DNA of 32,000 nt from Pseudoalteromonas translucida KMM 520 (GTDB lineage Bacteria; Pseudomonadota; Gammaproteobacteria; Enterobacterales; Alteromonadaceae), in the NCBI RefSeq assembly GCF_001465295.1, contig NZ_CP011034.1, positions 2,280,001 through 2,312,000 of the forward strand, written 5' to 3'. Under the pieces are notes generated by a model. The model did not search any database, was not told where the DNA came from, and saw nothing but the letters and a program-made list of their open reading frames with translations. Positions 15,243-32,000 of the stretch are shown here, piece by piece. Both the position numbers and the translations under genes were made by a program. Numbering within the stretch: the stretch's first letter is position 1; each line of letters begins with the position of its first letter.

Positions 15243-15995
15243 TTATTTACTCTTATTGAGCGCTGTTTTGCGCCGGTAACTGTCACCTTCGCAATGAATA
15301 ATCGTGGCATGATGAACCAAACGATCGATCGCCGCGACAGTCATTGTTGAATCTTCAAATAGTTCATCCCATTGCTCAAATGATTTGTTTGATGTGATGA
15401 TCATGCTGTGTCGCTCATAGCGATGGGCTATCAATTCAAACAGCACGCTCGTTTCCTGTTCCGTTTTTCGAACGTAACCAACGTCATCAACGATTAATAA
15501 GCTGTATTTATCGAGCTTTACAAGTTCATCTTGCAAGCGTAAATGTCGCTTTGCTTGCTGGAGTTGTTGAACAATCGTTGACGCGGCAACAAACTTAACT
15601 TTATGGCCCTGCTCGATAAGGCCATAACCGATACTACTGGCGATATGCGTTTTACCAAGACCACTGGCGCCAAATAGCAATATATTGCCACCGTACTTCA
15701 ACCAATCCGGCTGATTTATTAAATCAGCAACAAGGGGCTTACTAACCCCATCAACAAGGGTAAAGTCGAAGCTGCTAAGGTGTTTACCCACTGGCAATTT
15801 TGCATCTTTTAAAAGCCGCTGAAGGCGTTTGTCATCGCGTGTCGCAAGTTCAACATGACACAGCTCAGACAAGTATTGCTGCGGGCTCCATTGTTCTTCT
15901 ATCGCTTTTTTGCCCAGAGTATTCCACTGTTGAAGCATGGTGCTAAGCTTTAATTGTTTCAGCATTAAAGGTAACGAGGCCGTGAAGTTATCCAT
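15243..15995 (-). CDS. istB: IS21 helper ATPase IstB
   Basis: Walker A LLFGASGLGKTH and Walker B LLIVDDVGY. Overlaps the istA stop by 8 nt. Confidence 0.9.
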   Translation of the reverse strand: MDNFTASLPLMLKQLKLSTMLQQWNTLGKKAIEEQWSPQQYLSELCHVELATRDDKRLQRLLKDAKLPVGKHLSSFDFTLVDGVSKPLVADLINQPDWLKYGGNILLFGASGLGKTHIASSIGYGLIEQGHKVKFVAASTIVQQLQQAKRHLRLQDELVKLDKYSLLIVDDVGYVRKTEQETSVLFELIAHRYERHSMIITSNKSFEQWDELFEDSTMTVAAIDRLVHHATIIHCEGDSYRRKTALNKSK

Positions 15996-17481
15996 GTAGG
16001 CCTCCCGGTATCATGCTGCTATAAGCGCTCAAGCTGTGTTGCTTTATTGTCATTGTGGGTCTGTTTGATGCAATCACTAAAAATTGCGCTTCACATTCTC
16101 GGATGGCCGGTAATTGTCGCTGAGTAATTGACGCTGCTACAAATCGCCCTAATTGACGCTCACACCCACTTTGTTTCGCTAAATGGAGCAGTTTTACCAT
16201 GTAATAGCTCGCTTCATCCGCTAAAAGCTGGGCATTAACGTATTCCCAAATAGCTTTGTAATTGTCGTTTGGGAGTAAGTCGTCACGTAGTTGTGAGTAG
16301 CGAAATGCCAATGGTTTTTTAACCAGTGCGTCAATAACATGCAAGTAACTAATATTACGTGCACGGCACCCTTTAGAAGCATAGACACGCGCTAACGTTT
16401 GAACTAAATCGCTGCCATAGCGCAGCTCTAAACGGTTGTCATATAAACGAACAAGTAATCGGCTACCAATAAGGCGTGACGGGACGCTATAGGTAACACG
16501 TTTCAATGAAATAGTACTCGTACGTGACACCGTTAGGTAATGCTCGGTGTAATTGACGCTCATCGCCCGTGGTAAAGCGTGTAATTGTCGCTGCTCTACT
16601 GCGTATTTATCACTTACACGGCGATTACGGCGAGCAACAATGTCGGCAATAAACGATTCATAGACTTCTCTTGTCTGAAAGTCATAACTACCACGGATTT
16701 TTAATGCTTGCTCCAGTTGCGATTTAAGATGCCCATGAGGGCTCTCAATAGCCCCATTTTCATGCGCAATACCGCGGTTATTGCGAGTCGCTTTAAAGCC
16801 ATAATGGATAACTAGCTCATTAAAGCGCTCTGTAAAATCATTATCATTAGTATGATTACGATAGGCGGCACTCAGACTGTCTGTACGCACTTCTTTAGGC
16901 ACACCGCCGGCTGCTTTAAATGCGTTTTGTACGCCATCAGAAAAAGCAGCAAAGCTTTCACCGCCGTAAATTACTTGGGCGTAAGCCTAGCCACTGGCGG
17001 GCATACGATAATGAAACAACATATGCTCAAGGGGTTCACTAGCAATGGTAACGGGTGACTTCACATGTGTGAAATCACATATACCTAATAGGCCATACTC
17101 GTGTGTTTGCAGGAATACGACCTCTTTGCTTGAGCCATACAGTGCCCGCCATTTATGAATTCGACGCTCTAATGTACGCCGTGAGCTCGGGTTAAATTTG
17201 TCGGTGTGAAACTCGCAAAGATGATCAAAAATTCCCACCGGAGTTAACGTTGCATCACCTTGAAGTAGAGGGACAACAATACTGTCCCAGATAGACTCAA
17301 GTGGATCTATACGCGTTCGCCATTGGCGTTTATTAGACAATGGCTGCTCATCCAGTTTATCAATGCGCCTTGCTGAACGTTCAGAAATACCTGCTTTCGC
17401 AGCCGCGATAACTTGGCTATTACGCTTTCTATGTTTCATATAAATAGTGACCTGCTGATCAGTGATTCGTGTTCCCGGCAC
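15988..17481 (-). pseudogene. istA: IS21 transposase IstA interrupted by a single in-frame amber codon
   Basis: Track ORFs 16987..17481 (HTH N-terminus) and 15988..16902 (DDE core) are in the same frame. The stretch between them reads through as ..RMPASG*AYAQVIYGGESFAAFSDGVQNAFKAAGGVPKEVRTD.., with TAG at 16987-16989. Confidence 0.85.
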
Positions 17482-17978: not shown

Positions 17979-18962
17979 ATGAAACCTATCGAGAAAGCAA
18001 AAGCACAAAAGCTTGTGCTTAAGCTAGAATCTGGCAACTTCGACGAAAACGATATCGATAATATCTTCATGCGTTTGAGGGCATACTCTCATGGAAATCG
18101 GATATTTCGTGAAATCGCCGACTTCGTTGCTCACAATGATGAGAGGAATCAAGGGATATCGGTTGAGTCATTAGAGGCATTTTATCTAAGTTTTAAATAC
18201 TTTCTAGAGTATGTCTCACCGAAGAAATCGCTAGACATAGGAAGCCCGTTTCCACTTTACGTGAAAAAATTGATGAAATATCAGATTGATAAGTGCAAGG
18301 ACGCAGATCTGAAAGAAAAGTTTAATGTTACTAAGCAGCGCTTAAAATCAAGAGTTGATTCAATTTTTTCTGAAGACAAGAAAAATAAAAAAGCCTTTAT
18401 GAAGAAGCCGAAAATATCTGACGACACGATTGGAGCGCTTCAGCACATATTAGGTTTCATAGGTAGCCACCCTGCTTTCGATCAAGAGCAAGTGATTTTA
18501 GAGCTTCTAGCAGTAATCAAAGCGAATAAACTGCATGTAAATGAAGCTGAATTACTAAAGCATTCTGACAAAATAGCTGCTTGTGTAGCACTTCTCTTGC
18601 ATGACGCCACGTTTGAATATGGAGGTCACAAGCAGGGTTTCTGTAAGATCTCTTGCGAGAAGACATCTATATCTTACAATCAGAAATTTGTAGATAAAGA
18701 CGGGAACCCATCAGAGCATAAAGAATCATTTGGCAATATTCAAGTTCAAGGTCACGTAGTATTAGAGAAAGATGGAAAAGATCTAACAGTATGTTATCCA
18801 TTGATGACAACGAACCTATCCGTGGAGGACTGGTGCGATGACGATATGTTTGTTGTTGAGCCAATCACTGAAGATCACCCAAACTACTTACATAGAAAAG
18901 TTATCTTTGATCAAGATCTTTGTTTTACTGAGGGCGGTAAAATTGGGGTGATCCATACCTAA
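17979..18962 (+). CDS. Hypothetical protein (327 aa), no motif recognised
   Basis: Long ORF with GGGAAAA upstream of the ATG and AT-rich cargo-type composition. I recognise no catalytic or binding motif. Confidence 0.6.
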   Translation: MKPIEKAKAQKLVLKLESGNFDENDIDNIFMRLRAYSHGNRIFREIADFVAHNDERNQGISVESLEAFYLSFKYFLEYVSPKKSLDIGSPFPLYVKKLMKYQIDKCKDADLKEKFNVTKQRLKSRVDSIFSEDKKNKKAFMKKPKISDDTIGALQHILGFIGSHPAFDQEQVILELLAVIKANKLHVNEAELLKHSDKIAACVALLLHDATFEYGGHKQGFCKISCEKTSISYNQKFVDKDGNPSEHKESFGNIQVQGHVVLEKDGKDLTVCYPLMTTNLSVEDWCDDDMFVVEPITEDHPNYLHRKVIFDQDLCFTEGGKIGVIHT

Positions 18963-19132
18963 CGCCCGCAACACCAATGTCTGATATTGGCACAAAGCCG
19001 TCCTTTGGCTCTAACTCATCTTTGTCCAAAAATGAGTTTACCCGACCATCTGCTTCTCGCTCTAACTCGAATATCAGCTGGATAGTAGAGGTGCTATTAT
19101 TAAATATAACCTTTTCTGGCTTTGAGGTATCT

Positions 19133-19582
19133 ATGCCTAGCGATATTCAACCTAGTGCTAATAATAAATTTGTAGATATACTTAGCAATGGAAAAGTTAA
19201 TTTAAGCTCAAACCCTTTAGATGAAATTGAATTAATTCAGCGTGGTTTAGATATAAAAAGTGTTGAGAAATTTAGGCTTGAGTTAGATTGGGATATTCAA
19301 TCCTTTGCTAAAGCAATTGGTACAAATACTAGAATTTTCGAACGTCATAAAAAAGAGCATAAACGTTTAAATGCAACTTTGAGCGAAAATACCTTTGAGT
19401 TGGCTCATTTAGCATCAACTTGTATTGATTACTTTGAAAATATTGAACGATGGAATAAATGGCTAAATACATGCTCCTTACAATTTAGCTCTAAAACACC
19501 TTTAACATTTGTAAATACAATTGCGGGTAGAAGGTTAATTAGGAACGTTGTTAATAGCCTTAAACACGGTTATAACGCTTAA
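19133..19582 (+). CDS. Xre-like/DUF2384 (MbcA/ParS-type) antitoxin-like protein
   Basis: I prefer the ATG at 19133 (GAGG 7 nt upstream) over the track start at 18977, which adds low-complexity sequence. The HTH-like middle (DIQSFAKAIGTNTRIFERHKK) and the C-terminus (TPLTFVNTIAGRRLIRNVVNSLKHGY) resemble the DUF2384 toxin-binding domain. Confidence 0.55.
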   Translation: MPSDIQPSANNKFVDILSNGKVNLSSNPLDEIELIQRGLDIKSVEKFRLELDWDIQSFAKAIGTNTRIFERHKKEHKRLNATLSENTFELAHLASTCIDYFENIERWNKWLNTCSLQFSSKTPLTFVNTIAGRRLIRNVVNSLKHGYNA

Positions 19583-19613: not shown

Positions 19614-19762
19614 TTTACCCTCTGCCTTTTCGGCAGTTAAAAGTTACAATTTGTGGTTGTTTACTTCCCGGCCTAACTTCAGCTGCCTACTCGGCAGTTC
19701 ACACTTAGCGGAGTTGACGTCAAAAATTCTAAATATTTCCAGCTGCCTACTCGGCAGTTCAC
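19614..19762 (-). CRISPR. Type I-F CRISPR array with 3 repeats and 2 spacers, transcribed on the minus strand from a ~117-bp AT-rich leader below cas6f
   Basis: Minus-strand sense. R1 19762-19735 is GTGAACTGCCGAGTAGGCAGCTGGAAAT. Spacer 1 19734-19703 (32 nt) is ATTTAGAATTTTTGACGTCAACTCCGCTAAGT. R2 19702-19675 is GTGAACTGCCGAGTAGGCAGCTGAAGTT. Spacer 2 19674-19642 (32-33 nt) is AGGCCGGGAAGTAAACAACCACAAATTGTAACT. R3 19641-19614 is TTTAACTGCCGAAAAGGCAGAGGGTAAA, which is divergent. The repeat closely resembles the Tn6677 repeat GTGAACTGCCGAGTAGGTAGCTGATAAC as I recall it. Confidence 0.9.
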
Positions 19763-19879
19763 TATTAAAAATAGTTTAAATTCCTATAAACACCAAACTG
19801 TTAAACGTATTTAAATTATTTACCCTTATTTTTAATCAATCAGATAACTCATTGAAAATTAATGGGTGTTTTAAAACTA

Positions 19880-20482
19880 TTATAAAAGGGTATTTAAAGA
19901 AGGAACCGTACCTAGAAATATTTGATTTGTAGCAAAGCCATAATTGTTAAACTGATTTTTTATGGATTCAGCATTTTCATTTTTTTGTATATGCAAAACA
20001 TAACTTTGACCATTGCCTTTGCTTGATACGGGTATTGAATGAAAATGGCCTATGTCCTTTGCCTCAAATTTATATTCAGGGTTGTAAACTTCGCCTCTGG
20101 CTTCAGCTCGTTTTTTAGCTCGCTTTAATCGCCTTTGCTTTTCGCCAACAAATGCTTTTGCTACCGATTGGTTGCGAACAAACATGACTTCGCTTTGGTT
20201 TACTGGTACTTCAAGTATTTTTGATAAGCCAAATAACTTGTCATGAGCCATCATCTCAAAATAGCTTTGCTGAGATAGATTGGTTAATTGCTTTTTATTT
20301 GTTGATACAAACGCTAATTCATTACCTATTGTTTGCTCATTCCATTTAGGAAAGCACACACCAATATTACTTATTTCACGTGAGCTCATAAACCCATGCA
20401 AAATACCGATACAACGCCCAGCAAGAAGGCTTACATCACAACTTTGGGGTAAATAAGTAATGGTAAAATAATAGCGCTTCAA
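19880..20482 (-). CDS. cas6f: Cas6f (Csy4) crRNA endoribonuclease, CAST type
   Basis: 200 aa. The N-terminus MKRYYFTITYLPQ...CIGILHGF...NIGVCFPKW parallels the Vibrio Tn6677 Cas6 (MKWYYKTITFLPE...LHGF...NIGVSFPLW). There is a 4-nt ATGA overlap with cas7f, and the gene is followed by the array. Confidence 0.85.
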   Translation of the reverse strand: MKRYYFTITYLPQSCDVSLLAGRCIGILHGFMSSREISNIGVCFPKWNEQTIGNELAFVSTNKKQLTNLSQQSYFEMMAHDKLFGLSKILEVPVNQSEVMFVRNQSVAKAFVGEKQRRLKRAKKRAEARGEVYNPEYKFEAKDIGHFHSIPVSSKGNGQSYVLHIQKNENAESIKNQFNNYGFATNQIFLGTVPSLNTLL

Positions 20483-21507
20483 CCTTTACTCCTTTGAAAC
20501 AAGCCACCTTTGATCAGCACTGCCGCAATAAAGTGAATTGAGTTTGATTGTTCACTTTGCTCTAAACCATGCTTTTCCATGTGTTTAATATGCAAAGCAA
20601 TGCGCGGGAGTAATGAATAAAAGTCTGAATGGCTCTTAGGTGTTCTGTGTGCAACTAATATTTGCTTATCTGCGCCATACTCGTGAGTGCGTAAAGGTTT
20701 GTAACCTTCCTCATACCAATCATCAATAGTTTGGATAGCAGCCCCTACTTTTTGTGAATTCAAACTTGCTGCTTTTTTATCGCCTACTTGAGTATATGCA
20801 AGTTGTTTAGATGACATACCTTGTTCAACATTATCTACAAACTTTTGACTAGGATGAACCTCTTGGCTAAATGCATTTTTAATTTTTGCGGTTATATCTA
20901 AATAACAATAATTTTGAGGATTGCTTAGCCCTTCTTGAATAGATTCTGACAACGTTAATAATGCCGTTTGATTATTTTGCCAGTTGCCTTGCCATTTTAG
21001 TTTTTGTGCACCTTCAACAACAATCGGGGCTGCGTGCTCAGTAAGGATTTCAATATCAACATTTGGTGATTGGCGGTTACGCCAAAGCCAGTTGCCCATC
21101 AGTATATTTTTAGCATAGCGCGTTGCAACTTCATTAAGGCCATTGTGTTTTTTATAGGTTTCGAAAAACCGTTTTAACCAATAAATAACTTTAGGGTCAT
21201 CACATACATGTGGCTCAATACAATTAGCCTCAACCCTGAGTGAAAAACGACAAAATAGCTCATTTACCGTTGGAGGTACATAACACACATCAATTGTTTG
21301 AGGGTTTCCAAACGCGAGATCTTGTGGCGCTAAATTTTTAGCCACATTTTGCTTTTGATACGCATCGCCAAACCCTGACTTCTGCCCAACTAATTTATTT
21401 TGCTCTATTTGTAGCGGTTCAAAGTCAGACTCTGGTGTTTTATAAAAAAACACCGCTTTACTGGGTGAGAGCGAACGCGTGTAACTTAAGTGCCGAGGTA
21501 ATTGCAT
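20479..21507 (-). CDS. cas7f: Cas7f (Csy3) backbone subunit
   Basis: 342 aa. The N-terminus MQLPRHLSYTRSLSPSKAVFF and the C-terminus ..HFIAAVLIKGGLFQRSKG parallel Tn6677 Cas7 (MKLPTNLAYERSIDPSDVCFF ... HFLMANLIKGGMFQHKGD). Confidence 0.85.
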   Translation of the reverse strand: MQLPRHLSYTRSLSPSKAVFFYKTPESDFEPLQIEQNKLVGQKSGFGDAYQKQNVAKNLAPQDLAFGNPQTIDVCYVPPTVNELFCRFSLRVEANCIEPHVCDDPKVIYWLKRFFETYKKHNGLNEVATRYAKNILMGNWLWRNRQSPNVDIEILTEHAAPIVVEGAQKLKWQGNWQNNQTALLTLSESIQEGLSNPQNYCYLDITAKIKNAFSQEVHPSQKFVDNVEQGMSSKQLAYTQVGDKKAASLNSQKVGAAIQTIDDWYEEGYKPLRTHEYGADKQILVAHRTPKSHSDFYSLLPRIALHIKHMEKHGLEQSEQSNSIHFIAAVLIKGGLFQRSKG

Positions 21508-23558
21508 TATTCATACTCAAACTTAGACTTTTTCATAAGCATAGACTCTTTTTGAACATCCATAACCCAAAATGCGTCATGAAAGAACTGCTTAGCCCCT
21601 GCGTACTTTACTGATGTATTGCTAACACACTCTAACAGCCCAATTACGGGCTCTGCATAACAATGGTATTCATGTAATGCTGCATCTCGCTTTACGGGTT
21701 CTTCAAGCGCAGCCAAGCCAATTGCAGCGGGTCTTAAATTAAAGTTACTGTTAAGGGCATCAATTAATTGTTCAAAACTTTTAACTACTTTTTTTGAAGG
21801 ATATAACCAACTGCCATTTGACGATTTTGCTTTAAGTTTTTTAAACAGCTCGCTCGGTTTGGTATGTACATGGCACCAGTCAATATTTTGATATAACGAA
21901 GGTGGATGCATAGTCCCGCCTGCAAATGAAGACGGTAGTGCGGGCTTTATAAGCTGACTATTTAACTTATCTAACAGCTCAGTATTTGGTACAAAAAGTC
22001 TAAATACTAAATCGAGTGTTATGTCACATTTTGGTTTATCGATAATTCCAGATCTTATTACATGACTACGCCCTGCAACTTGTTTTAACTTGCTTGGCTC
22101 AGGTAATGGTTTACCTGTATGTAATTGATAGTTTTCAATGTAAATAGCACTGCCAATACACTTAATTGAAGGGTCTATAAAGTTTTTTAGCTTACGCTCA
22201 AAGTTATGAGCAAGCCCATTTAAAGCAGTAAGTGACGGCATGCCTTGAATATACGGATTAGCCATTGCCTCAGCATCAAACACTCGCATATCTTGGCAAT
22301 GTACATACACTATCTGCTCATCATTTAATATTTCTTGTTCAGCTGCACAGTGAGTAAATACATAGTTTAACTGCGCTTTAAACAGTCCCATTAAATTAGG
22401 GTGATACGCAAAGCGTTTGAGCTTACTTAAATTACCAAGGCTCTCATTTAGTACGTTACTAAATTGGCTAATACAGTTAGTAATACTCTGATCTAAGTAA
22501 TGCCTTACCCACTCAGGGTAAACTTGGTTTTGCGCGTTATTTTTAGCTTCAAGAATATTATCAAGCCATAACTGCAAGCTAACACGTACTTGCCTAATAG
22601 CCGCTACTCGCGCTAATCGTTTTTGCCTTAACGTATTAAACTGTTTAATGCCTACCAACACCAAAAGCGCCTGTTGAAATTGACTACTTAATAGCGCACG
22701 AATTTTAAATGCTTTCTCAATATCATTATTGGCTACTTTAGAGCGGTTAACAGCCTTTGAATATGTTTTAGGAAAGTAACGCAGCACTCTTATATTGCCG
22801 CCTACTGAGCTTGCTAAATCGCCAACATTGGCAGGTCTTGAGTGCTCAACTAAAGCAAAATTTAACTTACGATCTGTTGTTAATTGCTGAATTTTAGCCA
22901 GCATTGCGTGGCTTACTACAGGCGTAACCACAAGGTAGCTTTGCTGAAATGGCATTTGTAATTGTGGTGAAAAAGAGCTTACTTCTAATGGGAACTCTGC
23001 CACTGGCAACTGCTGTTTTATTTTACCCGAGATTTCTAAAACCGCCTTTTTAGTAAACCCGTATGCTCTTATTAAATTAATCCAAACAGGCTCTTCATTA
23101 ATTAACAGCCTTGCTAAACAAGTCACTTCACCTTGCCAATTAAACGAGGTTAAAAATAGCTTTGCATGATTAATTTCAGCACTGTTGTGCGACCAGCCAA
23201 AACTTAAAGGTAATGACCGGCTGCAAATGCCCGCAATATCTTCACTTACAACTTCACTAATTAAACGTTGATGGCTTACTCGTATATCGGGGTATTTTAA
23301 ATTATGAGTATGAAACCATTTCACTTCGTTAATGCACTTACTCAGTAACACTTCATCGCGTAGTACACTTTTAGCAGTTCTTGCACTTGTTAAATCATCA
23401 ATCTCACTTCGCTTATAAACAAGATTAATGAGCACAGTCAGCGCTAGTTCTTCAAAGCCATCTACCTCGACATGAGACGTGTATGGAACGAACAATTTTC
23501 TAAGTGCTGTGGTTTTTTCTTTTAGTGGTTCAATTGCAAGTGCATCTTGTAAGTTCAT
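21507..23558 (-). CDS. cas8f: Cas8f/Cas5f natural fusion (large subunit of the I-F3 Cascade)
   Basis: 683 aa. The N-terminus ..KLFVPYTSHVEVDGFEELALTVLINL.. parallels Tn6677 Cas8 (..RAFRPLTPHIAIDGNELDALTILVNL..). No separate cas5 is present. There is a TAATG overlap with cas7f. Confidence 0.8.
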   Translation of the reverse strand: MNLQDALAIEPLKEKTTALRKLFVPYTSHVEVDGFEELALTVLINLVYKRSEIDDLTSARTAKSVLRDEVLLSKCINEVKWFHTHNLKYPDIRVSHQRLISEVVSEDIAGICSRSLPLSFGWSHNSAEINHAKLFLTSFNWQGEVTCLARLLINEEPVWINLIRAYGFTKKAVLEISGKIKQQLPVAEFPLEVSSFSPQLQMPFQQSYLVVTPVVSHAMLAKIQQLTTDRKLNFALVEHSRPANVGDLASSVGGNIRVLRYFPKTYSKAVNRSKVANNDIEKAFKIRALLSSQFQQALLVLVGIKQFNTLRQKRLARVAAIRQVRVSLQLWLDNILEAKNNAQNQVYPEWVRHYLDQSITNCISQFSNVLNESLGNLSKLKRFAYHPNLMGLFKAQLNYVFTHCAAEQEILNDEQIVYVHCQDMRVFDAEAMANPYIQGMPSLTALNGLAHNFERKLKNFIDPSIKCIGSAIYIENYQLHTGKPLPEPSKLKQVAGRSHVIRSGIIDKPKCDITLDLVFRLFVPNTELLDKLNSQLIKPALPSSFAGGTMHPPSLYQNIDWCHVHTKPSELFKKLKAKSSNGSWLYPSKKVVKSFEQLIDALNSNFNLRPAAIGLAALEEPVKRDAALHEYHCYAEPVIGLLECVSNTSVKYAGAKQFFHDAFWVMDVQKESMLMKKSKFEYE

Positions 23559-23561
23559 AAG

Positions 23562-24743
23562 TTACCACGGCGCTATAAATTGTTTTTTTGTTAGAGGCTT
23601 TTCAGCTGCGAATGCTTGTTGTAGTTCAATCACTTGGCGTAAATAAAATACATGGCTATCAGCTCTGAGCTGTTCGTGCTTTTTTTGTGAATAAGCACAG
23701 TTTAAAAAGGCTTCTTGATGAAGCCTGTAAACTTGCTCTGTAGTAGTGTTTAACAATACTGCGGCATCAAAAGTACAAAGCAGTAAGTCACCAATATTTG
23801 GATGTTTAGCTTTAGGGTTACTATCAACTAATTCGACAAAATAACTAATAATCTCATCAATTACTTTGTTTTTCCGGTTACTTGTTGCAGCTATTTGACC
23901 ATCACGGATTAAATCGCCATAAACAGAGCTGAACTTAGTTTTATTAAAAGGGTTAAGTTGCTTGAGTCGCGCATTATTTGTGAGTAAATCTAATTCAGTG
24001 GTAAGGCTTTCAGGCCAAGTATTAAAGTAATCAACAAAAGCGCAGTTAAAGTCTGCATCACTTACATCAAGTTGCTTAACCTTCGCAAACCACGATATCA
24101 ACCCTACTATTTTTTGGCTGTTACTACTTGCAAGCGCAATTGCAATTTTAAAGTCTGCATCGTTTAACTGTTCACTATTGGTTATTTTACAACCGCAAAC
24201 ACACTCTAAAAACGCCTCAGAGGCTCTGTAATCAATTAAGTCATAGCACTCCTTACAACGTGTAATTAATTGTGACTTATGCTTATGACACGCCTTATAG
24301 GGCTTTAAATGCCAATAAAAGGGAATATGGGAAGATTCAGACAAGCATTTAATGCAAACAGGTATGTTATCAGTACGAAGTAGCTCAAGGGGAATAGCCA
24401 GTTCATTTCGACTTACTGCGGCAAGGTTGCCAAATTTAAAATTACTGCGCCTCCAAGCAAGTGCAAGAATGTCACCAGCGTTTACATCTGCTAATTGAGC
24501 AACCAACTTAAGCGCTCTTATTCTAAAGCTGCTCGCTTGCCTAGCATGATAAACATCAACTTTACTCAGCGCTAACGGCAGCGCACCTTCAAGCTCATTA
24601 TCTTGCTCTGCAAGCCATTGCCACAAAATATCAGCAAGCTCACTATAGCCATTGTATGAGTTATCCCTTGCAAGCCTCAGCAAATAGCTTTCAAGCGCCT
24701 CATCTGGGTAAGATTTTGTTTGAACTAAAAAATGCATCGCCAA
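23562..24743 (-). CDS. tniQ: TniQ (TnsD-family target selector of the CAST)
   Basis: 393 aa. The N-terminus P.EALESYLLRLARDNSY matches the TniQ fold signature (DESLESFFIRVA..NGY). Has a Cys-rich zinc-finger region (CIKCL...CHKH...CKEC) and a C-terminal ..APW. Lies 3 bp upstream of cas8f. The start may be the TTG at 24743 or the ATG at 24737. Confidence 0.85.
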   Translation of the reverse strand: MAMHFLVQTKSYPDEALESYLLRLARDNSYNGYSELADILWQWLAEQDNELEGALPLALSKVDVYHARQASSFRIRALKLVAQLADVNAGDILALAWRRSNFKFGNLAAVSRNELAIPLELLRTDNIPVCIKCLSESSHIPFYWHLKPYKACHKHKSQLITRCKECYDLIDYRASEAFLECVCGCKITNSEQLNDADFKIAIALASSNSQKIVGLISWFAKVKQLDVSDADFNCAFVDYFNTWPESLTTELDLLTNNARLKQLNPFNKTKFSSVYGDLIRDGQIAATSNRKNKVIDEIISYFVELVDSNPKAKHPNIGDLLLCTFDAAVLLNTTTEQVYRLHQEAFLNCAYSQKKHEQLRADSHVFYLRQVIELQQAFAAEKPLTKKQFIAPW

Positions 24744-24770
24744 CCTAAACTAAGAAAATCTTAGTTTAGG
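24744..24770 (-). promoter_or_regulatory. Perfect 11-bp inverted repeat CCTAAACTAAG aaaat CTTAGTTTAGG abutting the tniQ start (candidate Xre operator and/or RBS-occluding hairpin)
   Basis: Read directly from the sequence. The core CTAAG-N5-CTTAG recurs in the xre promoter at 29242-29256. A TTGACC -35-like hexamer lies at 24798-24793. Confidence 0.4.
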
Positions 24771-24811: not shown

Positions 24812-27800
24812 TTAATCTTTTGAAACATCTAAAACAAATATATCAATCAGCCCTACAAGATTTTTAGGTAAGTCATTTTCTAATTTTGCTTTAAGTTCAT
24901 CTGCGCTTTTCAAGCCATGCTGCTTTCTATTCGCTACCTTTTCTTCAGCCCCAAACCAAATAACAAGATAAATACCTTGTCCTTCAGCGTCAGGATGAAT
25001 TGAATATCTTTCAGCCAGTTGGTTTCCTGCTGCTGAAAACAGTTCTGTATGCCACTGCCCTTTAGCTTCAATCACAAGTAATCTTCGAATACCATCCATT
25101 ACTTTGGAGGCAGTAATATCAATTCTATTTTTATCTTTTGTTTGATGCTCTGCATTGATAACTATACTGTCTGCTTCTAAGCGAGGCTTCAAATAGTCTG
25201 CAATAATTTCTACTGAGCTAACTTCGTCAAGTCGAACTCCGCCTTGAGAATAAAAACGATTTCCAGGGTTAAACTCCCCACCTTTAATATCTTTTTGATA
25301 TTTATCTAGCTCATACAAGACTCTATCTCTAAGTCCTTCAACTGTAACAATCTCACAATTATCCAAAAGGTCTATAACCTTTGAAATATTTGGAGGAATA
25401 AAGTTTCTCATAGCTAAAGCACGAATTTGATTTGCTCTCATACTTTTAAGGTTTTGGCACATAACCTGAAAACGAGAGTCCTCAATTAACTGTTCAATAA
25501 TATGAATTGTTCTCTCAGAAGCGTCCAATTCAATTTGCCAAGATATATCAACCAGAAATCGATATGCTCTTTCTCCGTCAGGGCTAGAAGTGCCATATGA
25601 GGAAGGCAAGTTAACTTGTGGCCAATCTTCAATAAAGCGATCTAATAATAGATATATTTTATCACTAGATAAACTTGGAAAAGTATCGCGGCTTCCTGAG
25701 TTTAAACTACTTGATATTCCCTCGAATAAAAATATTGAGCTTTTCTTCTGAGTAAGGAAATTAAAAAGCTTTTGGGAATCGCATAAATTCAAAAAATAAA
25801 AAGCTCTTAAAAACCAAAATTGTATGATTTTCTCTTCAGACTTATCTATATGAGGTGACTCAATTCGACCCAGCCATTCATCGCAACGAATTAAGATCAA
25901 ACCTTTAAGCTGTTCTTTATCACCATAATGAACGGCTAAATCAAATAAAATATCCAACGCATAATAGCTCAGGCCAGAATACTTGTTTAACCACTCTAAG
26001 GGTAAATTGGCTTTAAATTCACTAAATATTTCATCGTCTCTTAGTACTTCTACTTCAGGGTGTTCGCATTTAAACTTGTCTAATTGAGGCTCAACATACT
26101 CTTTTAAGTAATTTTCTTTGGAAGTTACATCAGGAAATAACAAACGATCAATTTCACACTTAAGAAGACCACGTTCATCTTCAGTTACTGCGTCATAATA
26201 AATATTACATCTAGTTTTCACAGCAGTAAGTATTTGCTTACTAATATTGCCTAGATTCCCCTGCATACGTATTGTTTCTATACACAAAGCATACAAAACC
26301 GTTTCAATAAGTAACCACTGCGATAGACTCCTCAACTCAGCAAGTTTCCTTAAATCAGGTACGTCAGGAGCAATCAGGCTAGTGCAGTTTTTTAATGAAG
26401 TTCTCACCAGTTCTTCATCACCAAACTCTTTTTGTATATTTTCAGGTTCAAATAACAAACACTCTGAAAAATTAACTAACCACCCGAAATGCCCTCCAGA
26501 TTCGATTAAAGCGCGGTTTCTCTGAATAAAGCTAATGTTGTCTGCACGATTTTTGCTCTCACATTTTTTGTTCTTTCTATCTAGTCTATTAAACTTCGAA
26601 TTTCGTTTTCGTATCTGTAATCCAATAGAGTAATCTGTATTATTTGCTTTTGCCCACTCTCGCATAAATTCTAGCTTTTGATTAGCATGTTTACGCATGA
26701 TACTGCGTATCTGATTATTCAACTTGAGCTTATTATGCTGAAAGTAATAATGCCTCGTAATAAAAGTCGACCACAGTTCTAAATTGTTTTCTTCAAATGC
26801 TAAATTGATTAGGTATTCAATATCTTCAACGGAAAAACATAATCCAGAATGCGCACCGCAATATGGTTCAAACCTACTTTGTTTCAGATCGTAGATTTTT
26901 TTACGTTCAGTTATACCAGAAAAAGCGGTTTTAAAAAGTCCTTGTCTTAAGTCTTTATTTTCTCTGATTGCTTTTACAGACTTACAGAAATTATCACTTC
27001 CTTCCCTGTGATAATTTAAGTTTTTTAGCCATCCCCATATCTGTTCTGGGTTATATGGGAGGCTAGTAATATCAAAGTAATGATCGAGTAATTTACCTAC
27101 AAGCTTACTTATCCCGTCTCTACAAAAACACTCATAGTACTCTTTGCCACAACTGCAAGTTAACTCATCAGTTAAAAAATTTAATAATCGTTCTGTATTT
27201 TCAGCACTTAAAGTCCATACCAATTTATTGATGAAATATCGATTACCTTGTAACCGTCTATCATCTAGTGAGGTTTTTTCAGTAGGGTAGAGATTTGAAC
27301 ATGCTCGAAAGAAGCGTTTTAGTATGCCTAAATCAATAGAGTTAGCACCTAAGAATTCAATTCCTTTAGCTGCGATGTTTAGAGAGGTATTACTAGACTC
27401 AGATATTAATGTTTCGAGTATTTTAATATCATCAGAATCAATAAGCGAAAACAAACATTCCATAGCAAGCCTTCGAGTATCTAATCTCTCATTAGGTTCA
27501 AATAGTATGTTTATGAGATTGGGGGATAAGTGCTCAATAACCTGAGATTCTTTGATTATAGTTAATACTAAGTCTCGTAAATGCCCATCACTTTTATTTT
27601 CTAAAATTGGCTTAATATCTTCAGCCATATTTTTATCAAAAAAACCAACTGTACTGTATCGCCGCCAAAAATCACCTCTTCTAAAATACGGGTCATTTTT
27701 TTCAATTTGTGTTAACTGTGATAAAAGCAGCCTTTTAGATGAGCGATCAAGTTGTGAGGGGTCTCCATTAGCTAGCACAGCATAAGGATCAAGCTTTATA

Positions 27801-28852
27801 ATTTCATGTTGTAGCGCTAACCCGCCGAGAGTAGCCATCCAACCAAGCATTCCTCTCAATTCATCACGAACAATATTATTTGAAACTATTACTGTTTTAC
27901 AAACTCTTAAAGTTAGTGGATCTTGATTACTCTGTATTCGCTTTACTAAATACTGGGCGGCACAATATTCAGCAATAATTTTGTGAACAGCTCGATGCTG
28001 ATCAACATCATCTGCAAGTTTAAATAAGCGAGAATCTATAATGCTTGATAGATCTAAGCCCTCTCTTATTAGTGCATTAATATTGGGGTATAAGTATTCC
28101 TCTGATAAATCACTAACACTTACTCCTTCAGCACCTGATAAAAGAGTTTTAGAAAATACTTCTGAAGCGAGCTCTATTTTTTTCTTATACGCGAAATCTA
28201 TTCCAGTTCTTCTTTTTGCCGAAGGGTTAAGCTCTTTAGCTAAGTGCTCAACTGCTTTTTCAAAGATGGAGCTTTTACTTTTAAATTTTCGATTACTTTC
28301 AATGTAGGCATCTGCAAACATTTTCAAAAACTGAGGGTTCGGAAGTAAAACATCTAAATTAAAGCGTGAAACTTCTGTATAAAAATTATCAAAATCTTCA
28401 TCAGGCAAGTGGTGATCAAAAATCTTCCTTTGCTCTAATTCATTAAACTCCCTCAGCCTTAAAACCAGAGGAACACATTCTAAATACTCTATAACCGCTT
28501 GTGCTGAGTCACTGCTCCATTCACTTGAGCGACTTGATATTATTAAAGTTTCAGGTTTTGACTCTATGACTTTAGCTAATAATTTGTGTATACCACAGTT
28601 GTCAATCTTGGATAGTTCATCCAAGGCATCTATAACAAGAAAATCCCTAAATAATTTACTAGAATACAAATACTTGCTAGCAGTGACTGGGTTAGTATTA
28701 GCCTTACTTGCTAAGCTTTTAAGAAACTCAGTCTTACCAGCTCCTGGTTCTGCTAAAATAATTACACACTTAGAGACACTCAAGAGTTCATCTTCAGCAT
28801 AAATTTGCTCATCATTTTCAAGAGTACGCTGAAGATAAATATTTGAAGTCAT
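24812..28852 (-). CDS. NACHT-like STAND P-loop NTPase (1346 aa) with a helical/HEAT-like repeat body and a C-terminal PD-(D/E)xK-like nuclease-fold domain
   Basis: Walker A ILAEPGAGKTEFL (aa 31-44), Walker B FLVIDALDEL (aa 71-80), sensor-like LIISSRSS and NPQFLKMF. The middle is long and helical with HEAT-like segments. The last ~130 aa read ..INAEHQTKDKNRIDITASKVMDGIRRLLVIEAKGQWH.., which fits an E...D...ExK pattern. Confidence 0.75.
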   Translation of the reverse strand: MTSNIYLQRTLENDEQIYAEDELLSVSKCVIILAEPGAGKTEFLKSLASKANTNPVTASKYLYSSKLFRDFLVIDALDELSKIDNCGIHKLLAKVIESKPETLIISSRSSEWSSDSAQAVIEYLECVPLVLRLREFNELEQRKIFDHHLPDEDFDNFYTEVSRFNLDVLLPNPQFLKMFADAYIESNRKFKSKSSIFEKAVEHLAKELNPSAKRRTGIDFAYKKKIELASEVFSKTLLSGAEGVSVSDLSEEYLYPNINALIREGLDLSSIIDSRLFKLADDVDQHRAVHKIIAEYCAAQYLVKRIQSNQDPLTLRVCKTVIVSNNIVRDELRGMLGWMATLGGLALQHEIIKLDPYAVLANGDPSQLDRSSKRLLLSQLTQIEKNDPYFRRGDFWRRYSTVGFFDKNMAEDIKPILENKSDGHLRDLVLTIIKESQVIEHLSPNLINILFEPNERLDTRRLAMECLFSLIDSDDIKILETLISESSNTSLNIAAKGIEFLGANSIDLGILKRFFRACSNLYPTEKTSLDDRRLQGNRYFINKLVWTLSAENTERLLNFLTDELTCSCGKEYYECFCRDGISKLVGKLLDHYFDITSLPYNPEQIWGWLKNLNYHREGSDNFCKSVKAIRENKDLRQGLFKTAFSGITERKKIYDLKQSRFEPYCGAHSGLCFSVEDIEYLINLAFEENNLELWSTFITRHYYFQHNKLKLNNQIRSIMRKHANQKLEFMREWAKANNTDYSIGLQIRKRNSKFNRLDRKNKKCESKNRADNISFIQRNRALIESGGHFGWLVNFSECLLFEPENIQKEFGDEELVRTSLKNCTSLIAPDVPDLRKLAELRSLSQWLLIETVLYALCIETIRMQGNLGNISKQILTAVKTRCNIYYDAVTEDERGLLKCEIDRLLFPDVTSKENYLKEYVEPQLDKFKCEHPEVEVLRDDEIFSEFKANLPLEWLNKYSGLSYYALDILFDLAVHYGDKEQLKGLILIRCDEWLGRIESPHIDKSEEKIIQFWFLRAFYFLNLCDSQKLFNFLTQKKSSIFLFEGISSSLNSGSRDTFPSLSSDKIYLLLDRFIEDWPQVNLPSSYGTSSPDGERAYRFLVDISWQIELDASERTIHIIEQLIEDSRFQVMCQNLKSMRANQIRALAMRNFIPPNISKVIDLLDNCEIVTVEGLRDRVLYELDKYQKDIKGGEFNPGNRFYSQGGVRLDEVSSVEIIADYLKPRLEADSIVINAEHQTKDKNRIDITASKVMDGIRRLLVIEAKGQWHTELFSAAGNQLAERYSIHPDAEGQGIYLVIWFGAEEKVANRKQHGLKSADELKAKLENDLPKNLVGLIDIFVLDVSKD

Positions 28853-28904
28853 AGATTCTCTATATATACAAATTAAAGTAAGGTATTTACTCTTTAATTA
28901 AGCC

Positions 28905-29213
28905 TTAAAATATTTTGGAAGCTTTAATACTATCAAGCAGTTTCGCCTTATCATGCTGGTCTGCTTTACCCCATGCGCAAATTAATTCAGCCAAGTCATC
29001 TTCTTCACAATAAAAGTAAGCAACTGGCACATCTAGCTCTTTAGCTATGCGTTTCATGGTTAAAAAATCAGGGGCATGTTTGCCTTTTTCGTATTGGTTC
29101 ATGCGAGCACTAGCCGTGTTTGGCTCCATTCCTAATGCCATACCAAGCTGTTGCTGAGTAAGGCCAGCTGCTTTTCTTGCAGACTTTAGGCGTGAAGGTG
29201 TTGGAGTTTCCAT
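28905..29213 (-). CDS. XRE-family helix-turn-helix transcriptional regulator
   Basis: LKSARKAAGLTQQQLGMALGMEPNTASARMNQYEKGKHAPDFLTMKRIAKELDVPVAYF is a canonical Cro/C1 HTH_3 sequence. AAGG lies 6 nt upstream of the ATG. Confidence 0.85.
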   Translation of the reverse strand: METPTPSRLKSARKAAGLTQQQLGMALGMEPNTASARMNQYEKGKHAPDFLTMKRIAKELDVPVAYFYCEEDDLAELICAWGKADQHDKAKLLDSIKASKIF

Positions 29214-29241: not shown

Positions 29242-29290
29242 CTAAGATTCTCTTAGTATCCAACCCATAAGTGTACTAAGGATATTTTAG
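29242..29290 (-). promoter_or_regulatory. Candidate Xre operators in the xre promoter: CTAAG attct CTTAG (29242-29256) and CTAAG gatat TTTAG (29276-29290)
   Basis: Read directly from the sequence. The half-sites and N5 spacing match the palindrome at the tniQ start. Confidence 0.35.
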
Positions 29291-29302: not shown

Positions 29303-30079
29303 TTAAAGATAATCTTTTTTCAGGCCGGCCAATCGAATTTTACTAGTTGTAAATTGTTTTGTAACTGAGTCAATATATTGATAAAGGCTGAGCTCAATTT
29401 CATCAAAGCTCGTTCGGTGTCTGTGCTCAATTGTTATACCAAATTCTTTCAAAACTTCTATTAGCTTTGTTTGATGGTTTGTATATTTATATCTTAAGTT
29501 AGTATCTTTAGCATCATTGTATCTTTGGTTTGAGTCCTCAATTACAGCTATTACGTCATTTAATTTTCGATCGTACAGTCTAAAAAAGTTAAATTTACCA
29601 CTTCTAGAGTCTGGGAACACTAAAGCATAATATGTATACAAATCAATACGTTCTGGACTTAACAAGTGGTCCCGTTCAATTTGAGCTGAACAGAATTCTG
29701 CAAAGTTACTTAAGTTGTTGTTATGGTTTGACATTATGCTATTTTCTAATGATAAAGCATACGTTTTCCACCCAATATACACACCCAATCCAGCTAGTAT
29801 AGTTCCAAATATAACAGTCAATTCTTTACTGAAAGATAGGGAATAGATGAACCGTTCATTAACAATTTTTAAACAAGAATTGGTTAAACATAATCCCCAA
29901 GTTAAGTTCTCATCATTGATAAATTCAATTGCAACGCCTATAACTAGCAACAACTGTAGGGAAATATAAAGTAAAAAAAGGAATACAAACCAGCTTTTAG
30001 TTCTAACGCTTAAAAGGTAATTCACCGAAATATGTTTTTTCAAATTGATAAATATGCTCTTAAATTTATCCAATGTCAT
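29303..30079 (-). CDS. Two-TM membrane protein, putative effector partner of the RT
   Basis: TM helices WFVFLFLLYISLQLLLVIGVAIEFI and LTVIFGTILAGLGVYIGW, followed by a ~150-aa soluble tail. I prefer the ATG at 30079 (AAGGA 9 nt upstream), which overlaps the RT stop by 14 nt. The track start at 30118 is a GTG with no SD. Confidence 0.6.
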   Translation of the reverse strand: MTLDKFKSIFINLKKHISVNYLLSVRTKSWFVFLFLLYISLQLLLVIGVAIEFINDENLTWGLCLTNSCLKIVNERFIYSLSFSKELTVIFGTILAGLGVYIGWKTYALSLENSIMSNHNNNLSNFAEFCSAQIERDHLLSPERIDLYTYYALVFPDSRSGKFNFFRLYDRKLNDVIAVIEDSNQRYNDAKDTNLRYKYTNHQTKLIEVLKEFGITIEHRHRTSFDEIELSLYQYIDSVTKQFTTSKIRLAGLKKDYL

Positions 30080-31250
30080 ATTTTCGATCCTTTGGCTCAA
30101 TTTCTTTAAGTCGCTCACTTATTTCGGTGTATTTATCTTTATATAATCTTTTTATAATTCCATTCATATAAACAACTAGGTTAAATCTTTTTTTGTACCA
30201 GTATTTCTCCCTATAACTATCAGGGTAGGTTTCGAGCTTTTTAATTATAAAAAAACAATGTTTTATATCAACTGCCGATGGCAATGGCTGAATATCACTT
30301 AAAGCGTTTTTAAAGTAGCCGTGTTTTGGATGCTTGACCCTTGCTAGCTTGTGAATGCGACCTAAACATCTATCAAAAGATCTGCGATAACTTCTGCTTT
30401 TCCTAAAGTTATTTTCTTGAGCTTTCTTTGTTAATGCATGTACTTCTGCTCTGATTTTTGCAATCTCTTTAGCAGGTAAACGTGGCTGGTCAAACTCAAC
30501 TCTAAGCCCGTGTACCATCAAGGGCTTTATCGAGCTATAAGACACCTCTTCTTTTTGCTCATTTATTGGCAAATCTTTTTGCAGAAGCATGTCTTCAATT
30601 AATTTTTTTGCAGTGTTGAAATTAAAATTAGAAGCTGTACTAGAAACGGAGATATCATCAATGAACCTAGTATAAGTAAGTCCCTTACGTTCTAATCGTT
30701 TAACCAGTAAGTGTTCTAAGTCAAAAAATATTAAGTTAGCTACATAGCTTGAGGTCAATGCGCCTTGAACCAATGTATTTTCAAAGCAACAAACATCACA
30801 TATGAAATCGGCTACTTCATTTGAAAGATCTAAAGTATTAACCAAAATATCTTTTATATGCTCTTTATGAATATTATCGAAGAAATCTGATATATCCATT
30901 TTTAAAAGGCTTTTTGCTCCACAATGCTTTTCAGCACATTTGATGTGGTCTCTGCTATCCTCAATTCCATTAATTAACTTTGGTATAGAACCGTATACAA
31001 ACTCAGGCCAAATTATTTTAGGCTTGAAAAAGCGGTTATTGATTCTTCTCTGAAATTTTCTGGTCAATTTATTAGGACATAAAACTCTTCTCTTAGAACC
31101 ATCACTTTTATATGCAGATTTAACAGGTTCACGATATCTAGAAGAGCTATTTGAGGATATAAAAGCTTCATAATCATCTTCTAAATCTAGAAAAGATATA
31201 AAGTTTTCAAGCTTTTTAATTGGGTCGCCTCGGTAATACTTAATTTCCAT
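30066..31250 (-). CDS. Reverse transcriptase, retron-type or defence-associated
   Basis: RT motifs 1-7 are present: RRVLCPNKLTRKFQRRI, LLKMDISDFFDNI (motif A), LVQGALTSSYVANL (motif B, QGxxTSP-like), YTRFIDDISVS (motif C, xxDD), INEQKEEV, and MVHGLRV (compare retron VTG). There is no endonuclease or maturase domain. Confidence 0.85.
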   Translation of the reverse strand: MEIKYYRGDPIKKLENFISFLDLEDDYEAFISSNSSSRYREPVKSAYKSDGSKRRVLCPNKLTRKFQRRINNRFFKPKIIWPEFVYGSIPKLINGIEDSRDHIKCAEKHCGAKSLLKMDISDFFDNIHKEHIKDILVNTLDLSNEVADFICDVCCFENTLVQGALTSSYVANLIFFDLEHLLVKRLERKGLTYTRFIDDISVSSTASNFNFNTAKKLIEDMLLQKDLPINEQKEEVSYSSIKPLMVHGLRVEFDQPRLPAKEIAKIRAEVHALTKKAQENNFRKSRSYRRSFDRCLGRIHKLARVKHPKHGYFKNALSDIQPLPSAVDIKHCFFIIKKLETYPDSYREKYWYKKRFNLVVYMNGIIKRLYKDKYTEISERLKEIEPKDRKYDIG

Positions 31251-31603: not shown

Positions 31604-32000
31604 TTATTTCCTTAACAACTGACTAATCGGCATCCGGTCAGTAAACTTGGTCGCTATAAACGGGTCTTCATCTTGAGAGCTTTCAGGCTTATAAAGTGAA
31701 TAGCGCTCGACTTCGCTTGCTGTTATTTCTGCTACAGGCAAGGTAAATAAATTAGGAACATCCGGAAAGAGTACCTCAAATGCTTTAACTAAATGCTTGG
31801 TTGTGAGAGTTTTCGCGTTGTCCATTAATGCATAAAGTACGGCATCATCTAAAAAGTATTTTAATGTTCTAAAGCAACCTTTTGATAATGAGAACAAAGT
31901 AAACACTGTTGCTTGCTCACTTAAGTTTGGCTTTTCGGCAAATGGCATACGGTTGGCTAGACCAATTATTAGTTGTACAAAATGCTTTGGGTTTTCTGAC
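31604..32000 (-). CDS. tnsC: TnsC (TniB-like AAA+ regulator of Tn7-like transposition), C-terminal part. The 5' end is outside the window.
   Basis: The frame stays open from 31604 to the window edge (..SENPKHFVQLIIGLANRMPFAEKPNLSEQ...). The C-terminal sequence is TniB/TnsC-like (..SKGCFRTLKYFLDDAVLYALMDNAKTLTTKHL..). Its position and orientation match tnsC upstream of tniQ-cas in I-F3 CASTs. Confidence 0.7.
   Translation of the reverse strand, partial: SENPKHFVQLIIGLANRMPFAEKPNLSEQATVFTLFSLSKGCFRTLKYFLDDAVLYALMDNAKTLTTKHLVKAFEVLFPDVPNLFTLPVAEITASEVERYSLYKPESSQDEDPFIATKFTDRMPISQLLRK

Follow-up and report, generated by a model that had tools for sequence, protein, structure and literature searches.

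A probable EruA-family NACHT protein encoded beside the likely Xre regulator of a type I-F3b CRISPR-associated transposon in Pseudoalteromonas translucida

Introduction

The described Avs and bNACHT antiphage proteins share one domain order, in which an N-terminal effector is followed by a central nucleoside triphosphatase (NTPase) and a C-terminal sensor, and the NACHT signature has been defined as D[GAS]hDE (Kibby et al., bioRxiv 10.1101/2022.07.19.500537). This report concerns a 4-kb gene encoding a large NACHT-like NTPase, and the small xre gene next to it, in a stretch of 32,000 nt from Pseudoalteromonas translucida KMM 520 (NZ_CP011034.1, positions 2,280,001 to 2,312,000), which is referred to here as the window and in whose numbering all coordinates are given. 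An initial annotation, made from the sequence alone, had described the pair as an undescribed antiphage module composed of an XRE regulator and an NTPase with a C-terminal PD-(D/E)xK-like domain.

A second group of described systems bears on the smaller gene. According to the portion of Petassi et al. (bioRxiv 10.1101/2020.07.02.184150) drawn on here, tnsABC and tniQ-cas flank an xre gene in nearly all elements of the type I-F3 CRISPR-associated transposon (CAST) group. The I-F3b version encodes a protein of ~100 aa that is a relative of C.Csp231I, a controller of restriction-modification. There, xre is preceded by two operator motifs and tniQ-cas by one, and both promoters are repressed by Xre. 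We read the 4-kb gene as encoding a stand-alone, NLR-like NACHT STAND antiphage protein (EruA) and the XRE protein as the CAST I-F3b controller, and we give this combined reading a probability of roughly 80%.

Results

The large protein and the EruA family

The 1346-aa protein (Table I) matches the NCBIfam equivalog NF058535.1, named "NACHT domain-containing antiphage protein EruA", with 1240 bits (E=0; curated cut-off 1000). The alignment forms one stretch, placing aa 12-1344 on positions 9-1318 of the 1318-position profile; as the match runs from end to end, the catalogued family has the same architecture as the window protein. On the strength of this profile match the protein is almost certainly a member of the EruA family, and its gene is called eruA below. 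The initial annotation had offered the module as undescribed unless profile searches should assign the large protein to a catalogued family of the same architecture. NF058535 is such a family, and that label therefore falls. The proposed role in defence fares better, being supported by the antiphage family name given in NCBIfam.

The protein database contains 944 EruA homologues of ~1340 aa, at roughly 46-50% identity, from hosts that include Vibrio, Photobacterium, Shewanella, Salmonella and Pseudomonas. Species-representative genomes yielded 171 relatives, 80 of which were used for the locus comparisons in this study (loci labelled L001 and so on). The closest are from Pseudoalteromonas, with 99% (L001) and 98% (L002) identity over the C-terminal part. 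A blastn search of complete Escherichia coli genomes with a Salmonella homologue gave no match. Plasmid-borne relatives are annotated only as "hypothetical protein", for example one from Vibrio campbellii at 48.6% identity. Sequence searches of the PDB with the single protein and with a profile returned nothing relevant to EruA. In the literature, the only "EruA" found is an unrelated SlyA-family regulator of E. coli, and neither DefensePredictor nor a 2026 survey of STAND proteins mentions Eru.

N-terminal NTPase

A NACHT-type STAND NTPase was correctly placed by the initial annotation at the extreme N-terminus, where it is supported by sequence motifs and by near-threshold Pfam matches. Walker A is AEPGAGKT (aa 34-41, nt 28730-28753; GAGKT at aa 37-41), Walker B is FLVIDALDE (aa 71-79, nt 28616-28642), and a sensor-like IISSRSSEW follows at aa 104-112, with the SSRSSEW core at aa 106-112. 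Within Walker B, D75-A76-L77-D78-E79 fits the NACHT signature. Residues G37, G39, K40, D75, D78, E79 and S106-W112 show no or almost no variation across 67 genome-derived and 117 database homologues, which argues that these motifs did not arise by chance. Precomputed matches to PF05729 or PF20720 are present on several EruA homologues.

Only 35 residues separate K40 of Walker A from D75 of Walker B. In the Pfam NACHT alignment aa 71-151 correspond to profile positions 84-166, so that Walker B lies near position 88; this suggests that the two motifs are much farther apart in the typical NACHT profile and that the P-loop core of EruA is unusually compact.

C-terminal domain

The candidate catalytic residues of the C-terminal domain are E1235 (AEHQ), D1245 (RIDIT) and E1262-A-K1264 (VIEAKGQW). 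E1235, D1245, E1262 and K1264 are invariant in separate alignments of 31, 117 and 67 homologues. AlphaFold2 models were obtained for aa 1105-1346 (predicted local distance difference test score, pLDDT, 78.3) and for a core of aa 1196-1346 using 117 sequences (pLDDT 82.9, predicted template modelling score 0.77). Both models contain an α-β-β-β-α-β core, comprising three antiparallel-type strands between helices and a fourth strand at the end. In the core model these elements are a helix at 15-31, strands at 36-42, 48-57 and 60-70, a helix at 76-90 and a strand at 94-104 (core-model numbering), with D50 in the second strand, and E67 and K69 in the third. The models place E1235 within β1, have β2 begin with D1245 and put E1262-x-K1264 on β3, as is canonical for PD-(D/E)xK domains.

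The 50 best Foldseek matches are rich in PD-(D/E)xK restriction-type nucleases for both models, although no match of any kind reaches E≤0.001. Among the sub-significant matches of the core model are Cdn1 (6.5e-3), PaqCI (9e-3; TM-score 0.46, probability 0.97), Cap4 (TM-score 0.48) and BamHI (TM-score 0.45), together with Mus81, Can2, FokI, NucS, MspJI and SwaI; the best single match is the unrelated acetyltransferase AvrA (2.2e-3). A PDB sequence search gave no match for the domain. A phmmer search against 1.8 billion representatives gave 1249 matches; almost all of the 150 listed are either fragments or proteins of EruA length that end in this domain, and none of those listed has a differently annotated architecture that could name the domain. 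It is plausible, from motif and predicted topology, that the domain is nuclease-like, an assignment that is not statistically established. Of the PD-(D/E)xK claim made in the initial annotation, the C-terminal position and the motif stand and are joined by the modeled core topology; a significant structural or Pfam match does not accompany them.

Helical body

Between the NTPase and the C-terminal domain lie ~1000 aa of mostly variable helical sequence. The label "HEAT-like" applied to this body has as its sole support a sub-threshold Pfam HEAT_2 match in one homologue. Across 67 homologues the most variable segments are 451-550, 701-800 and 951-1050 (entropy 1.6-1.9), while residues 151-200 and 301-400 are highly conserved and residues 1251-1300 are the most conserved of all (entropy 0.62). 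A conserved C-terminal segment combined with a variable middle fits a conserved effector joined to a variable sensor.

The helical body also contains a cluster of four cysteines (C566-x-C568-x6-C575-x-C577), which may be a zinc site, judging by its spacing. This cluster is absent from any annotation found.

eruA as a single-gene unit

Both reading frames, their positions and the 52-bp gap between them (28853-28904), as reported in the initial annotation, agree with the list of open reading frames (ORFs); its motifs (Walker A, Walker B, the SSR sensor-like motif and E...D...ExK) likewise recur in the translation where it had placed them. The two genes are on the minus strand, and the ORFs opposite eruA, of 53-92 aa each, are without support. 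The G+C content is 34-35% across the eruA region, compared with ~40% in the left side of the window.

The pairing of the two genes as a module was not upheld by the locus comparison. Among ~64 loci the nearest neighbors of eruA fall into 61 unrelated clusters upstream and 60 downstream, and no neighboring gene is conserved across the 80 loci. A homologue of the window XRE occurs in only four of them (L001, L002, L018 and L019), all of which are Pseudoalteromonas CAST loci; it is missing from the other 76, and none of the small ORFs just upstream of eruA outside CAST loci is XRE-like. With no shared neighbor family and an XRE homologue in so few loci, eruA is, on this comparative evidence, a stand-alone single-gene unit.

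The Xre protein and its operators

The best solved relative of the XRE protein is the Csp231I C protein (PDB entry 3LFP; E=5.4e-26, aa 8-92), and its top PADLOC match is Control_protein (6.5e-31). A CapH- or RmrA-type defence regulator was considered and rejected, the corresponding PADLOC matches being far weaker than that to Control_protein.

Sites resembling the palindrome CTAAG-N5-CTTAG occur upstream of xre and of tniQ (Table I). A search of the window with this pattern gave five matches, compared with 1.14 expected, and none of 100 shuffled sequences reached five. No such site was found between xre and eruA or upstream of eruA. Two copies lie upstream of xre in L018 and L019, in the same relative position as in the window, and the copy upstream of tniQ is present in L001, L002, L018 and L019, as well as beside a tniQ fragment in L013. 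Exact copies are confined to these five CAST-linked loci, at the same relative positions, and are absent from the other 75 of the 80. Because its size, homology to C.Csp231I, position and operator layout all match the description of I-F3b, the XRE protein appears to be a core component of the transposon. It is very likely the C.Csp231I-like Xre regulator of a type I-F3b CAST and not a partner of EruA.

The CAST neighborhood

The mobile-element setting proposed in the initial annotation was confirmed and can be specified as a type I-F3 CAST, with genes for TniQ, Cas8/5, Cas7 and Cas6 downstream of eruA. The retron-like neighbor on the upstream side was likewise correctly recognized and belongs to the type IV/Ec48 family (PADLOC RT_IV, NF038235). 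Identification of tnsC relies on L001, where the corresponding ORF (1850-2851) matches Pfam TniB (4e-27) and is preceded by a TnsB-like gene with rve and Mu-transpos_C matches.

Table I. Positions of genes, domains and sites in and around the eruA locus (window numbering)
Feature	Position	Strand	Details
eruA	24812..28852	-	1346 aa, ATG start; stop codon inside range
NACHT-type P-loop NTPase core, ~aa 20-151	28400..28795	-	Near-threshold Pfam nSTAND3/NACHT matches and motifs
Cysteine cluster C566-x-C568-x6-C575-x-C577	27122..27157	-	Helical body; 4/4 Cys invariant in 67 homologues
PD-(D/E)xK-like domain, ~aa 1205-1346	24815..25240	-	Putative nuclease effector; motif invariance and AlphaFold2 core
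xre	28905..29213	-	102 aa; C.Csp231I-like controller; Pfam HTH_3 6e-11
Distal Xre operator-like palindrome upstream of xre	29276..29290		CTAAGGATATTTTAG; CTAAG-N5-CTTAG with one mismatch
Proximal Xre operator-like palindrome upstream of xre	29242..29256		CTAAGATTCTCTTAG; exact CTAAG-N5-CTTAG
Xre operator-like palindrome 7 bp upstream of tniQ start	24750..24764		Exact; core of 27-bp perfect palindrome CCTAAACTAAGATTTTCTTAGTTTAGG
tniQ-cas8/5-cas7-cas6 operon	19880..24743	-	Pfam TniQ 1e-13; Csy2, Csy3 and Csy4 matches
tniQ	23562-24743	-	Pfam TniQ
cas8/5	21507-23558	-	Pfam Csy2
cas7	20479-21507	-	Pfam Csy3
cas6	19880-20482	-	Pfam Csy4
CRISPR mini-array downstream of cas6	19619..19767	-	Three 28-nt repeats, 60-61 nt spacing
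tnsC 3' end (TniB family)	31604..32000	-	Runs off window; 93% identical to C-terminus of L001 ORF 1850-2851
Type IV/Ec48-family retron	29303..31250	-	Variable cargo slot between tnsC and xre; reverse transcriptase and 2TM effector
Retron reverse transcriptase	30066-31250	-	PADLOC RT_IV 2.2e-137
Retron 2TM effector	29303-30118	-	PADLOC 2TM_IV 3.2e-52; NF038235 251 bits (cut-off 65)

The gene order xre-eruA-tniQ-cas is the same in L018 (P. luteoviolacea) and L019 (P. holothuriae), where the identities to the window proteins are 49% for EruA, 51-53% for TniQ, 48-49% for Cas8, 61% for Cas7, 57-59% for Cas6 and 78% for Xre. A fragment from P. piscicida (L013) contains the end of eruA, the operator and the start of tniQ. 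In a neighbor-joining tree of 67 EruA proteins, the pair formed by the window and L001 is sister to that formed by L018 and L019. The slot between tnsC and xre, which holds the retron in the window, is occupied in L001 (2942-6164) by a SIR2-like and HerA pair. The shared order and similar divergence of the block, while the adjoining slot is swapped, make eruA look like a long-standing resident and not recently exchanged cargo. eruA is fixed between xre and tniQ in this Pseudoalteromonas CAST lineage, a modestly new observation.

No terminator-like site was found between xre and eruA or between eruA and tniQ, and promoter-like matches do not outnumber those obtained with shuffled sequence. Expression of eruA may follow the autoregulation of Xre.

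The last repeat of the CRISPR mini-array is atypical, with 75% identity to the reference copy, a layout resembling that reported for I-F3 CASTs, in which an atypical repeat goes with an att-targeting guide. The msr-msd noncoding RNA of the retron was not identified in the window, and scanning the window for Rfam families and tRNAs returned nothing.

Other features of the window

An insertion sequence of the IS21 family occupies 15243-17481. It has an IstB ATPase gene at 15243-15995 and an IstA-like transposase gene that is split into 15988-16902 and 16987-17481 and so probably disrupted. At 17979-19582, a 327-aa protein without a family match is encoded directly upstream of a 201-aa Xre/ParS-type antitoxin (Pfam Xre_MbcA_ParS_C; NF049845 79.6 bits, below the cut-off of 90). 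As no RES-domain toxin was seen beside this antitoxin, the 327-aa protein could be an unrecognized toxin partner.

Further to the left, three ORFs that abut or overlap (6369-6941, 6942-7226 and 7153-7788) appear to be pieces of a single sugar-transporter-like gene of the major facilitator superfamily (6369-7788), which suggests a pseudogene or sequencing frameshifts. A 720-aa protein (2380-4542) combines a FAN1-type helix-turn-helix, a VRR-NUC nuclease and a C-terminal RNase T/DEDD exonuclease in an unusual fusion. The gene at 5073-5984 encodes a DUF2971 protein; it lies in the kilobase of lowest G+C content (32.5%) in the left half of the window and may have been horizontally acquired.

Discussion

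If EruA works in the manner of Avs and bNACHT proteins, its helical body would recognize a phage-derived cue, upon which the NACHT module would drive nucleotide-dependent oligomerization. The oligomers would gather the C-terminal nuclease domains, so that DNA is cut and phage replication is stopped. This would either destroy the phage DNA directly or abort the infection, perhaps with the loss of the cell. Xre, for its part, would bind the CTAAG-N5-CTTAG operators upstream of xre and of tniQ-cas. We consider the nuclease-effector mechanism slightly better than an even bet, and hold it less firmly than the family assignment or the identity of the regulator.

Several points weigh against reading eruA as a stand-alone antiphage gene with a nuclease effector. 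The "antiphage" label is taken from the NCBIfam name alone, and a literature search found no paper on an antiphage EruA or HyoA, another NACHT family in NCBIfam. PADLOC v2 (2023), proposed as a check in the initial annotation, was run, and none of its models matches the 1346-aa protein. Both Pfam matches to the NTPase are sub-threshold: nSTAND3 (PF20720) scores 27.0 bits against a gathering threshold of 27.2 over aa 22-149, and NACHT (PF05729) 24.1 bits against 26.7 over aa 71-151. For the C-terminal domain, Pfam gives no match at E≤10, and Foldseek searches of the PDB with the two models retrieve no solved nuclease at E≤0.001, with TM-scores ≤0.5. Oligomerization, trigger and DNA cleavage are all drawn by analogy from Avs3/4 and bNACHT proteins. 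With respect to the history and expression of the locus, the tree has no bootstrap values, and the co-transcription of eruA with xre, which is probable, is deduced from the 52-bp gap and the lack of a terminator-like site.

The two genes could instead form a dedicated, undescribed two-gene antiphage module in which the XRE protein controls or licenses the NTPase. Their shared strand, close spacing and uninterrupted junction would suit such a module, as would the recurrence of the pair in L001, L002, L018 and L019 and the failure of PADLOC v2 models to match the large protein. Yet a catalogued family, EruA, already shares the architecture of that protein over its full length, 76 of the 80 EruA loci have no XRE homologue, and EruA loci show neither a conserved neighbor nor an XRE-like small ORF upstream. 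Moreover, the XRE protein has the size, the homology to C.Csp231I and the operator layout published for the I-F3b regulator, and no operator lies between xre and eruA; we therefore regard a two-gene module as very improbable. A different objection concerns the effector. The C-terminal domain might be a degenerate or repurposed PD-(D/E)xK-like fold, serving as a surface for DNA binding, sensing or oligomerization, with phage stopped in some other way, such as nucleoside triphosphate depletion or recruitment of a host factor. The missing Pfam match, the lack of a significant structural match to a solved nuclease (TM-scores ≤0.5) and the acetyltransferase AvrA at the head of the core-model Foldseek matches (2.2e-3) all leave room for this. 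Inactive PD-(D/E)xK domains usually lack the motif's acidic residues and lysine, but in EruA these are invariant in more than 100 homologues at ~50% overall identity. They also occupy their canonical positions, the Asp where β2 begins and ExK within β3, and they lie in the most conserved part of the protein. An inactive domain is accordingly judged unlikely, though less so than the two-gene module.

There is also the question of what eruA does for the transposon. It might have been co-opted for a transposon function instead of host defence, for instance to police rival elements or target DNA when a new host is entered, or as an addiction module stabilizing the element. The xre-eruA-tniQ-cas block is conserved and has co-diverged in five Pseudoalteromonas genomes while the adjoining cargo varies, and the location of eruA downstream of an Xre-autoregulated promoter suggests that it is expressed in a burst when an Xre-free cell is entered. 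Against this, the CAST-linked EruA proteins retain the full family architecture and every invariant residue, and ~75 other loci carry eruA without a CAST. Defence genes are common cargo of Tn7-like transposons, and simple carriage explains the data; co-option is the least credible of the alternatives considered here. In a further reading, eruA would be no exchangeable cargo but a long-standing, co-diverging part of the CAST regulatory core in this Pseudoalteromonas lineage, transcribed from the Xre-autoregulated promoter, and would deliver a burst of an NLR-like nuclease-sensor ("zygotic induction") in a cell free of Xre. This proposal is speculative, and we think it doubtful, albeit somewhat less so than an inactive C-terminal domain. 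If true, the Xre-driven burst would tie innate-immune-type defence, or the exclusion of competitors, to the establishment of an RNA-guided transposon.

The preferred reading, a stand-alone EruA protein beside a CAST regulator, has first of all corrective value. What looked like a novel defence gene is already listed under a curated name, EruA, and its apparent partner, xre, belongs to the transposon; catalogues of defence systems would be misled by an entry that joined the pair into one system. Two features may interest specialists: an NLR-like protein whose NTPase comes first and whose nuclease-like domain comes last, and the fixation of eruA in an Xre-controlled CAST core while the adjoining slot alternates between a retron and a SIR2-HerA pair.

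In comparison with known systems, the protein is closest to the EruA family itself, the above-cut-off match covering its full length, N-terminal NTPase and C-terminal domain included, and its size being common to hundreds of homologues. No architectural difference from the family is apparent; what distinguishes the window copy is its position in a type I-F3b CAST between xre and tniQ. The likeness to HyoA (NF058534.1) is limited to the region after the P-loop (aa 130-780 on profile positions 203-851, E=2e-29). With 102 bits against a cut-off of 1200, and with the N- and C-terminal parts unaligned, the window protein is not a HyoA member.

The resemblance to Avs3/Avs4 and bNACHT proteins (Gao et al. 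2022; Kibby et al. 2023) lies in a STAND/NACHT NTPase with the D[GAS]hDE signature and a large helical sensor, and in the same expected logic of sensing, oligomerization and effector activation. Avs3/4 and some bNACHT proteins carry an effector of the restriction endonuclease type, and the nuclease-like domain of EruA is its putative counterpart. In contrast to these proteins, the order in EruA is reversed, as the initial annotation had rightly pointed out: the NTPase begins at ~aa 20 with no domain before it, and the nuclease-like domain comes last. Neither the Avs models of PADLOC nor any other PADLOC model matches EruA, and the spacing from Walker A to Walker B is only 35 aa; membership of the Avs family was rejected on domain order and the lack of a model match. 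The catalogued EruA family as a whole already has the reversed order, which is hence not new at this locus. The XRE protein, finally, resembles the Xre of I-F3b CASTs and C.Csp231I, with 102 aa, a position between tnsC and tniQ-cas, and two operators plus one. It differs in its setting, where the 4-kb eruA gene separates xre from tniQ, a gene that goes unmentioned in the portion of Petassi et al. considered here.

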